Source: a virus (Duplodnaviria; Heunggongvirae; Uroviricota; Caudoviricetes). From it: 64,000 nucleotides of DNA. Made by a program: the position numbers. This document shows positions 12,001-15,000 of this stretch, piece by piece. The stretch is taken from the IMG/VR virus record IMGVR_UViG_2718218396_000003, one strand, 5' to 3'. How positions within the stretch are numbered: position 1 is the stretch's first letter; each line of letters starts with the position of its first letter.

Positions 12001-15000
12001 GACAGTCTGCTGATGGCTGATTTAACCGTCCGGCAGTTGAAGGTGATGCTCGCTATCATGCGCAAGACATACGGATTCAATAAGCCGATGGATCGACTCA
12101 CAAACACGCAGATAGCAGCCATGACAGGTATTCATCACACTCATGTTTGCGCTGCCAAGCGCCAGCTTATTGAGCGTAAATTCCTCATTGCTGATGGCGT
12201 GAAAATCGGAGTGAACAAGGTGGTTTCTCAGTGGATTAGCCAGGACAGCTTAACATTAGCTAAAACAGCTAATAAAACATTAGCCAAGTCGGCTAATGGG
12301 TATAAGCCAAGTCAGCTAAACACAAAAGACAATATACAAAAGACAATAAATACAAATACCCCCTTACCCCCTAACGGGGATGGCGATGGGCAGGTTAAAC
12401 CTGAACGTCGCAAGGCAGAACGAATCGACTACGAATCCTTCCTGAACGCCTACAACACCGAAGTCGGTGACAGACTTCCACACGCTGTTGCGGTCAACGA
12501 GAAACGAAAACGCCGCCTGAAGAAAATTATCCCGCAACTGAAAACGCCAAACGTGGACGGTTTCAGAGCGTATGTCAGGGCGTTTGTGCATCAGGCCAAG
12601 CCGTTTTACTTCGGAGACAACGACACGGGCTGGACGGCAGATTTTGATTACCTGCTGAGGGAAGATTCGTTAACGGGAGTTCGGGAAGGGAAGTTTGCAG
12701 ACAGGGGGATTGCATGAGACAGGATATCGAAGCTAGCGTTATCGGTGGCCTGCTGATTGGTGGATTAACTCCAACCGCCAGTGACGTTCTGGCAACGCTG
12801 GAGCCGGAAGCGTTTTCAATTCCGCTCTACCGGAAAGCCTTCGAGGTTATTCGCAAGCAGGCGAGAAACAGAAACCTAATCGATGCGCTGATGGTTGCCG
12901 AGGCGTGCGGAGAGGAGCATTTCACGTCAATCCTGATGACCAGCAAAAACTGCCCGAGTGCCGCAAACCTGAAGGGATATGCCGGAATGGTCGCGGATAA
13001 CTATCACCGCCGTCTGGTGCTGGAAATCATGGATGAAATGCGTGAACCAATCCAAAGCGGAACCATCGACGCATCGAGTCAGGCGATGGATGAACTTGTA
13101 AAGCGTCTTTCAGCCATCAGAAAGCCCCGTGACGAGGTTAAACCTGTACGGTTAGGGGAAATATCACTGACTACACTGACACGCTTGACAGGCGTCTGAG
13201 GAACGGAGAAGAGTCAGATACCCTGAAGACCGGAATCGAAGAGCTTGACGCTATCACTGGAGGGATGAACGCAGAAGACCTGGTGATTATCGCCGCTCGT
13301 CCTGGTATGGGGAAAACCGAACTGGCGCTGAAGATTGCCGAAGGTGTGGCAAGCCGCGTTATTCCTGGTTCTGACGTCCGGCGCGGGGTATTGATTTTCT
13401 CAATGGAAATGAGCGCATTGCAGATTGCAGAGCGAAGCATTGCCAACGCCGGGAGGATGTCGGTTAGCGTACTGCGAAATCCTGCATCGATGGATGACGA
13501 GGGCTGGGCACGTGTTGCTAACGGCATGAGTCAGCTTGCAGATTTGGATGTATGGGTAGTCGATGCTTCGCGGTTATCGGTCGAAGAAATACGCTCAATC
13601 GCAGAACGGCATAAGCAGGAAAATCCAAACCTGTCACTCATCATGGCGGATTATCTTGGCCTGATTGAGAAGCCGAAAGCAGACCGCAACGACCTCGCAA
13701 TTGCTCACATCTCCGGAAGCCTGAAGGCGATGGCGAAAGACCTGAAAACACCGGTTATCTCCCTGAGTCAGCTTTCGCGCGATGTTGAGAAGCGACCAAA
13801 CAAACGCCCGACAAACGCAGATTTGCGTGATTCAGGAAGCATTGAACAGGACGCAGACTCAATCATCATGCTCTATCGGGAAGCGGTATATGATGAGAAC
13901 AGTAGCGCCGCGCCATTTGCTGAAATCATCGTGACGAAAAACCGTTTTGGCTCGCTTGGTACAGTTTACCAGCGGTTCTGTAACGGACACTTTGTTGCAT
14001 GTGACCAGGATGAAGCCAGACAGATTTGCACAGCATCAAATGCACCTGCTGCGCGTGGCAGACGATATGCACAAGGGGCTGACGTATGACCATCTACATC
14101 ACTGAGCTAATAGCAGGGTTATCGTTACTAATGGTTCTTACTGTATATATTATTAAGTATATTCTTTATGCGAATAAAAAAACTAATTGATCACGATGAG
14201 CTTCTGTCAACATTATCATATGACTCAGAAACAGGAATATTTAAATGGCTAAAAACAAATTCAGTAGTAAGAGTAAAAGGTAGTATTGCTGGAGGTGTTA
14301 GTGGTGGTTATATATGCATTAGTATAAATAATGTTTTGTATAAGGCGCATAGACTTGCTTGGTTCTATGTATACAAAAAATGGCCTCCTAAGTTTATTGA
14401 TCATGTAAATGGGAACAGACTTGATAATAGGATTTCAAACCTAAGACTGGCAACAGAAGAGCAGAATGCAAGAAACATTGTAGGGAATAGATTAAACACA
14501 TCCGGTGCAATTGGAGTGTCTTGGTATAAGCCAACTGGCAGGTGGAAGTCTTATGTTGGTTATAAAAATAAGACAATATCGTTAGGGTATTTCGATAGCA
14601 AAGAAGATGCAGCATTCATAGCAGCACTAGCAAGAAAGAAACTATATGGAACTTATGCGAGTAAAGCACTTAATTGCGAGCATGAGCTTTTATCTCAATT
14701 TAATAATGATGAGGATAAACTTGCGGAATATCTTAAGGAAAAATATAAAAGGACTCGAAAGCGTGTTAAAAAAAGATAAAGGCCTGCTGGTAATCGCAGG
14801 CCTTTTTATTTGGGGGAGAGGGAAGTCATGAATCTGGACAAGCAAGATGCACAAACTATTAGCTCATACATAAGGGCATCAAGACCAGATTACAAAGGTC
14901 CGGTATTCGTAGATTTATCTCGCCTTGAATAGATTTACATGTGGAAAGCAAGGTTACTTACGCATTTTGTTATTCGAACGATGACTAGCAACATTACAAA

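Follow-up and report, generated by a model that had tools for sequence, protein, structure and literature searches.

Where in its early-right module does a Shiga toxin (Stx) 2c prophage begin to replicate its DNA, and by what sites would its initiator find that place? The question is raised by a stretch of 64,000 nucleotides (nt) of caudoviricete DNA, IMG/VR record IMGVR_UViG_2718218396_000003, which we call the window throughout and of which positions 1-32000 are 100% identical to Escherichia coli O157 strain 7784 (NZ_CP018247.1), where this DNA is annotated as an Stx2c prophage. A gene for an O-family replication initiator (O; 11896-12717, + strand, 273 amino acids; WP_000539354.1, 'Eru2A') carries in its middle a group of short palindromic repeats, or iterons, which is followed by an A/T-rich tract. 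We propose that the early-right module is replicated from a cis-acting origin at 12235-12379, in the part of its own initiator gene that encodes the linker, and we put the probability of this at close to nine in ten.

Four phased iterons in the initiator gene

The repeats form a single cluster of four. When the whole 64 kb were scanned on both strands with the pattern TTAGCYAANNCRGCTAA, allowing up to two mismatches, + strand matches were found at 12236, 12256, 12280 and 12303 and at no other site; as the palindromic third copy is also counted on the - strand, the total is five matches against 0.30 ± 0.54 expected, a number that was reached in 0 of the 100 shuffles used as control. A repeat search delimited the same family as four copies of 18 nt with starts at 12235, 12255, 12279 and 12302 and hence with start-to-start spacings of 20, 24 and 23 base pairs (bp). 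The units are 17-18 bp long and palindromic, with the consensus TTAGCCAAnnCrGCTAA, and dyad symmetry is seen in every one of them, best in the third (TTAGCC-AAGTC-GGCTAA).

All four are given here for the + strand together with the codon frame in which they are read. Iteron 1 (12235-12252, ATTAGCCAGGACAGCTTA), the most degenerate copy, lies in frame 1 and reads ISQDSL; iteron 2 (12255-12272, ATTAGCTAAAACAGCTAA) and iteron 3 (12279-12296, ATTAGCCAAGTCGGCTAA), the latter with the arms TTAGCC and GGCTAA, lie in frame 0 and read LAKTAN and LAKSAN, respectively; and iteron 4 (12302-12319, ATAAGCCAAGTCAGCTAA), which abuts the A/T-rich tract, lies in frame 2 and reads YKPSQL. A preliminary description of this DNA had placed three palindromic elements of about 17 bp here, at a spacing of about 24 bp and in a segment beginning at 12256. 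The site was correctly chosen and three of the copies lie within that segment, but there are four copies rather than three, the first of them starts 21 bp to the left of 12256, and the spacing is not uniform.

The position of the iterons within the gene is precise. Pfam assigns amino acids 19-113 of the O protein to Phage_rep_O (E = 5.8e-33), and the iterons begin at the first nucleotide after the sequence coding for this N-terminal origin-recognition domain (11950-12234, + strand, by the Pfam coordinates), which includes the putative recognition helix TGIHHTHVCAAK. The linker that is encoded at the repeats is of low complexity (SQDSLTLAKTANKTLAKSANGYKPSQLNTKDNIQKTINTNTPLPP). Beyond it lies the sequence coding for the C-terminal domain (12390-12714, + strand), which by homology is of the P22 gp18 type and would be the part of the protein that recruits the helicase.

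The use of three reading frames among the four copies argues that the repeat is a feature of the DNA and not a peptide repeat. The same is seen in its conservation. The N-terminal domains of a Yersinia phage and a Salmonella phage share 60% and 53% of their amino acids and 64% and 59% of their nucleotides with that of the window, with third codon positions at 42%, whereas the 84-nt iteron block is 76% and 82% identical in the two phages, contains no insertion or deletion, and keeps both the 20/24/23 spacing and the reading frames. When 17 iterons of four phages are compared, T1, G4, C5, A7, G13, C14 and A17 in the arms are invariant and the central positions 9, 10 and 12 are the most variable.

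A common variant of iteron 3 carries GAG in place of AAG (K to E in the linker, at the equivalent of window position 12286), as seen in the IMG/VR loci L018, L020, L021 and others and in the GTDB locus L097. It converts the iteron to TTAGCCGAGTCGGCTAA, a perfect palindrome with 8-bp arms, and is thus a shift towards better dyad symmetry.

The A/T-rich tract and the element to its right

Directly 3' of iteron 4 follows an A-rich, strand-asymmetric tract (12320-12359, + strand, ACACAAAAGACAATATACAAAAGACAATAAATACAAATAC), the candidate DNA-unwinding element. Its GC content is 0.225 (22.5%) and its AT skew +0.68, with 26 A as against 5 T. Among the 40-mers of the O open reading frame (ORF) it has the lowest stability, -42.8 kcal/mol compared with a window mean of -55.7 ± 4.5; in the whole window it ranks at about 245 of 63,961, that is, within the top 0.4%. 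The tract contains two tandem 14-mers, ACAAAAGACAATAT at 12322-12335 and ACAAAAGACAATAA at 12336-12349, and it starts with ACACAAAAGACA, exactly as does the DNA that follows the last iteron in lambda. Overlapping its right end is a G/C-rich element (12359-12379, + strand, CCCCCTTACCCCCTAACGGGG), which occupies the position of the right-hand palindrome of lambda and contains a short CCCC/GGGG inverted repeat.

An A/T-rich run behind the repeats and a low-complexity linker in O had both been described beforehand, and both are confirmed by these coordinates. As far as can be judged from sequence, so is the accompanying view that the arrangement mirrors the lambda origin: the gene codes for a Phage_rep_O initiator, the iterons have the number and spacing of those of lambda, the tract has the same start, and the iterons covary with the helix of the initiator, as set out in the next section. 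DnaA boxes (TTATCCACA) with fewer than two mismatches were found on neither strand in 11700-12800, and an Rfam scan found no RNA family at the origin, its sole match being a frameshift pseudoknot of the IS3 type.

To the right of the tract most relatives (loci L098-L111, L154) show the arrangement C5-N3-5-C5-N2-4-G4-5, for example CCCCCTAAATCCCCCAAGGGGG, and two carry another palindrome, GTCATC...GATGAC, in place of the C/G element. This suggests a right-hand origin element that is conserved but flexible in sequence. The C/G element always lies in one reading frame, and its conservation could also be at the level of the protein.

Covariation of the iterons with the initiator helix

Evidence that connects the iterons with O comes from related loci. 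For this comparison one genome per species was scanned, loci were chosen by protein only, and four N-terminal domains were aligned; the resulting set comprises 80 loci from 100% down to 33% identity, with the helix readable in 70. Loci were scored for at least three strict TTAGCY...GCTAA sites just after the N-terminal domain. Such sites are present in 21/21 loci with the helix IHHTH[V/I]C and in 0/49 loci with other helices, which have other palindromes. Most of the IHHTH[V/I]C loci have four sites at offsets that match 20/24/23, and a 22nd IHHTH locus, L163 from Arsenophonus, has many TTAGCY...GCTAA sites. The class is found in hosts that include Erwinia, Serratia, Pantoea, Enterobacter, Rahnella, Photorhabdus, Proteus and Arsenophonus, and its initiators have C-terminal domains of at least three types. 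A scan of IMG/VR with the N-terminal domain returned only copies with 99-100% identity, which are of no use for covariation.

Helix and iteron pair as follows: IHHTH[V/I]C with TTAGCCAAGTCGGCTAA in this window and 21 other loci, IHRTH with GTAGCTAACTCAGCTAC in L113, KHHTHCS with TTAGCAGAAGTTGCTAA in L117 and L129, SRQNVNKAK with TGTCTCCAAGTTAGAGACA in N7, LPHKCSAAK with TTACCCGAATCAGGTAA in 4A7 and a Klebsiella phage, and KLPVKRCNEAK with ATCCCTCAAAACGAGGGA in lambda and ES18. Covariation of this kind is as expected if the helix of the N-terminal domain reads the iteron arm, and TGIHHTHVCAAK is probably the recognition helix. Whether the series extends to a rule is more doubtful. IHHTH with TTAGCC arms, IHRTH with GTAGCT arms and KHHTHCS with TTAGCA arms, together with the P22, lambda and N7 classes and with the 20/24/23 scaffold common to all, could be read as a simple recognition code for the whole family of O initiators, in which one or two residues of a single helix set the origin specificity; we offer this as a tentative idea and would not be surprised to see it fail.

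One locus of the set deserves mention in its own right. In L113 (Enterobacter sp. BRE11, about 1240-1340) IHRTH stands for IHHTH and GTAGCTAACTCAGCTAC iterons stand for TTAGCC...GGCTAA, which makes it a candidate for a specificity switch by a single residue.

Comparison with known origins

Lambda has its origin in the central part of O, composed of iterons together with an AT-rich tract, and the O-some forms when O binds the iterons (PMC7466680). In the lambda record four 18-bp 'ori iterons' are annotated inside O, at 39034, 39054, 39078 and 39101 and thus with a spacing of 20/24/23, and are followed by ACACAAAAGACACTATTACAAAAG. The region in the window is like it in its place within a Phage_rep_O gene, where it separates the parts for the N- and C-terminal domains, in having four dyad-symmetric iterons of 18 bp that are spaced 20/24/23 and read in different frames, and in having a tract of about 40 bp, rich in A, that abuts iteron 4 and starts with ACACAAAAGACA. 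The two differ in what would be recognised and in what would be recruited. The iterons are TTAGCCAAGTCGGCTAA here and ATCCCTCAAAACGAGGGA in lambda, and the putative recognition helix is IHHTHVCAAK here but LPVKRCNEAK in lambda. The two O proteins are 42% identical over amino acids 17-149 only; their C-terminal domains are unrelated, with no similarity detectable in this part, and the partner encoded by the prophage is a DnaB-like helicase whereas lambda uses the loader P. Finally, to the right of the tract there is a short C/G-rich motif here and a 28-bp palindrome in lambda.

In its C-terminal half the initiator resembles that of P22. BLASTP aligns O with P22 gp18 over 259 amino acids at 51% identity (E = 1e-96), the C-terminal half included, and the intact allele of the helicase, p of phage Nil2, is 90% identical to P22 gp12 over 458 amino acids. 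At the nucleotide level the likeness to gene 18 is concentrated at 12316-12375, that is, at the tract and the G/C element, where identity is 93-96% as compared with 40-66% over most of the gene. P22 gene 18 has four repeats of about 20 bp that are unlike those of lambda (PMC8022706). The curated P22 record (BK000583) carries a rep_origin at 32840-32984 inside gene 18 with the annotation 'similar to phage lambda', and in ES18 a rep_origin is annotated inside gene 59; both phages have four repeats, spaced 20/24/23. P22 further shares with the window the tandem 14-mers and a small ORF similar to orf48 upstream. However, its iterons are TTTACCnnATCGGTAAA as against TTAGCCAAGTCGGCTAA here, and the corresponding helix of its N-terminal domain is MAPTKCSTAK. 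Since both the iterons and the recognition helix are unlike those of P22, the origin specificity would differ from that of P22 too.

A separate observation concerns a 30-nt island near the 5' end of O (11926-11955), which encodes PQLEVVEHRVA. Its identity to P22 gene 18 and to a Yersinia phage is 90-93%, compared with 40-63% in the bins on either side, and it may represent a recombination joint or else a further cis element.

Cronobacter phage phiES15 has the same type of helix and of iteron as the window, the latter in five copies, but combines them with an unrelated C-terminal domain and a loader similar to lambda P. Because the same N-terminal domain and iterons thus occur with C-terminal domains of the P22 type, the phiES15 type and others, the N-terminal domain and the iterons behave as one exchangeable specificity module and the C-terminal domain and the helicase or loader as another, with the A/T-rich tract as the joint.

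Among Stx-converting phages of enterohaemorrhagic E. coli, 933W and P27 likewise have the origin in the middle of O, with iterons and an AT-rich tract (Kozlowska et al. 2020, PMC7466680). They differ from the window in that they have six iterons of the lambda type, lambda-type O and P proteins, and depend on the DnaB of the host (PMC7466680), whereas in the window the iterons number four and belong to another sequence class, and the helicase is the phage's own. The iteron origins of theta plasmids with Rep initiators (pSC101, R6K, F, P1) are similar in that phased direct repeats for the plasmid's own initiator stand beside an A/T-rich unwinding element. Different from these, the origin of the window lies inside the coding sequence of its initiator, which belongs to another family; its iterons are palindromic, which implies that they are sites for dimers; and a DnaA box with fewer than two mismatches is absent from 11700-12800.

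The replication genes in this prophage copy

The O gene itself is intact and widely shared. Phages Nil2, 1717 and 2851, as well as several Stx2a phages, have an o gene 100% identical to it; the identity is 99.1% in coliphage HK446 and 98.8% in several Salmonella phages similar to P22, and phage mEp213 is 98.5% identical over 12200-12400. The gene is present in 715 of 5,426 complete E. coli genomes.

Upstream of O lie cI-, cro- and cII-type genes and an element of the IS3 family of insertion sequences (ISs). The latter is IS629/IS1203 (10501-11810, + strand, 1310 bp), with a GGA target duplication and terminal inverted repeats TGAACCGCCCCGG; at 10836-10952 it contains an ALIL frameshift pseudoknot. 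It is inserted in a small gene similar to orf48/ORF53, between the cII/oop region and O, and early rightward transcription may no longer reach O and the origin. Downstream, and overlapping O by 4 nt, lies the gene for a DnaB-family helicase of the P22 gene 12 type ('Eru2B', 12714-14089, + strand). In this copy it is a pseudogene. A deletion of 1 nt after about 13161 divides it into ORFs 12714-13199 and 13265-14089, over which the Pfam domains DnaB and DnaB_C are distributed; one C is lacking, GAAATATCAC here as against GAAATCATCAC in Nil2, the site is not in a homopolymer, and RefSeq labels the gene of strain 7784 as 'frameshifted'. Among the matches listed, at least three complete E. coli genomes carry 10300-13400 as a single unbroken stretch of 100% identity.

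The origin and O are thus intact in this copy, yet the helicase is frameshifted and IS629 stands between the early promoter region and O, so that firing of the origin would probably require help in trans.

Proposed mechanism and alternative explanations

By analogy with lambda, initiation would proceed in five steps. Dimers of the initiator, through their N-terminal domains, would bind the four dyad-symmetric iterons, as the covariation also leads us to expect. The phasing of 20/24/23 bp would then allow the bound dimers to form a wrapped complex like the lambda O-some, and this complex would strain and melt the adjoining A-rich tract at 12320-12359, for which the computed stability is low. 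In place of the P-DnaB complex that is recruited in lambda, the C-terminal domain, being of the P22 gp18 type, would be predicted from homology to recruit the DnaB-like helicase of the gp12 type that the phage itself encodes. Primase and polymerase of the host would finally take over, as they do in lambda.

Several points weigh against assigning an origin to 12235-12379. The support for such a function is drawn from architecture, covariation and homology. The annotated origins of P22 and ES18, to which the region is compared, themselves rest on similarity to lambda. Iteron 1 is degenerate, with four mismatches to the best copy, and the inverted repeat to the right of the tract has arms of only 4 bp (CCCC-TAAC-GGGG within CCCCCTTACCCCCTAACGGGG), compared with 28 bp for its lambda counterpart. 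The recognition helix was assigned by alignment alone. A single-sequence AlphaFold2 model of O, made for locating the helix-turn-helix and the linker, had a mean predicted local distance difference test score of 38 and was discarded, and a search of PDB sequences with the O protein gave no match at E <= 1. Lastly, the helicase pseudogene and the upstream IS629 make activity in situ doubtful.

Could the conserved repeats then be something else? Iterons 2 and 3 both encode L-A-K-(T/S)-A-N within a low-complexity linker, and the repeats might accordingly be a mere by-product of a repetitive linker peptide with no role as DNA. We rejected this on the frame analysis and consider it highly improbable: ISQDSL, LAKTAN, LAKSAN and YKPSQL do not constitute one peptide repeat, the iteron DNA is better conserved than the coding DNA next to it and free of insertions and deletions, a peptide repeat would not need palindromic units, and the sequence of the units follows that of a helix in the distant N-terminal domain. 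Hardly any weight can be given to transcription terminators or RNA hairpins on the - strand either. A consensus scan does flag iteron 3 with the T-run that follows it (- strand, 12298-12278), but it flags one of four copies, the stem has 4 G-C pairs among 9, a match of this sort follows trivially from a palindrome beside an A-tract, and the 5 terminator-like sites of the region are not a significant excess over the 2.7 ± 1.8 expected; this reading, too, was rejected. Somewhat more serious, though still improbable, is the suggestion that the repeats bind the initiator for a purpose other than initiation, such as autoregulation of O or the titration or exclusion of superinfecting phages of the same specificity, and that the true origin lies elsewhere. 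Cloned lambda oop plus iterons do inhibit phages with lambda-type replication, the 'inhibition phenotype' (PMC3349717), and in this defective prophage O and the iterons have stayed intact along with an oop-like element. Against this stands the full and conserved anatomy of an origin, with phased iterons, an abutting A-rich tract with a lambda-like start and a G/C element to its right; the 64 kb contain no second iteron cluster, and exclusion would be a function added to an origin rather than one that replaces it.

A different kind of alternative accepts the region as a bona fide origin by descent but holds that it is permanently silent in this strain as its trans-acting parts are broken. The deletion in the helicase gene and the position of IS629 speak for this, as do a frameshift in exo, a second IS in the nin region and the finding that, in the complete genomes listed, only three have the configuration of 10300-13400 unbroken at 100%. 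Yet phages Nil2, 1717 and 2851 share O and the origin with this copy at 100% identity, and some other prophage might in principle provide a helicase. We regard the case for permanent silence as evenly balanced. It concerns activity in this host and not the identity of the element, and is therefore compatible with our assignment of 12235-12379 as the replication origin.

The Eru2 replication unit as a P22-type lambdoid replicon

RefSeq lists the O protein of strain 7784 as WP_000539354.1 and its cI repressor as WP_001302016.1, and these are the accessions of Eru2A and Eru2r, respectively (Llarena et al. 2021, Table 1, PMC8044961). Judged by these identities, the module of the window is the 'Eru2' replication unit of Stx2c phages, which is the common replication module of the Stx2c phages of E. 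coli O157:H7 (PMC8044961). Eru2 was presented as a non-lambdoid replication unit that lacks O and P; Eru2A was noted to have 24% N-terminal identity to O of 933W over the Phage_rep_O motif (PMC8044961), and in a follow-up survey of Eru types the proteins that take part in replicating Eru phages are said to be wholly uncharacterised (PMC8951638). Different from the present work, the two papers (PMC8044961; PMC8951638) mention neither an origin nor iterons for Eru2. The iteron strings of 16-17 nt occurred in no paper of the full-text literature searched, which gave only unrelated 11-mer matches, and a literature search on phage 2851 with Stx2c and replication protein O yielded nothing on the origin.

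At the sequence level our comparisons show Eru2 to combine an O-family initiator and a predicted origin of lambda architecture with a back end of the P22 gene 18/12 type. New in this work are the placing of an origin in this widespread Stx2c module, the class of its iterons and the recognition of Eru2 as a P22-type lambdoid replicon; the kind of element is textbook. For general biology, then, there is nothing new in kind, but one more clean case in which an initiator domain and its binding sites travel as a module. Production of Stx depends on replication of the toxin phage (PMC7466680). With a defined origin site of 145 bp and a distinct iteron specificity, the Eru2 phages would be open to the toolkit developed for lambda and P22, including ori plasmids, footprints and titration by ectopic origins. 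If our assignment is true, the Stx2c phages of the Eru2 type would be re-filed as P22-type lambdoid replicons with a defined origin, which might serve as a target, or be titrated, so as to stop the toxin phage from replicating.

Further features of the prophage

To the left of IS629 an oop-like antisense element is present on the - strand at 10351-10442. The conserved 33-mer ACTGGATCAATCCACAGGAGTAATTATGACAAA, which in lambdoid phages comprises pO and the 5' end of oop, lies at 10410-10442, and on the - strand at 10378-10351 there is a strong hairpin, similar to a terminator, that extends over the end of cII. The second IS is IS1203, which interrupts a phosphatase gene of the nin region at about 20000-21400.

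Just after the helicase gene, in the ninA/tR2 region, a very A/T-rich insertion of about 0.67 kb (about 14113-14780) contains an ORF for an HNH endonuclease with an AP2 domain (14168-14779). The insertion is absent from Nil2 and 2851, and the ORF looks like a free-standing homing endonuclease. The genes for the A and B subunits of Stx2c are found at about 22800-24100, downstream of three tRNA genes and Q.

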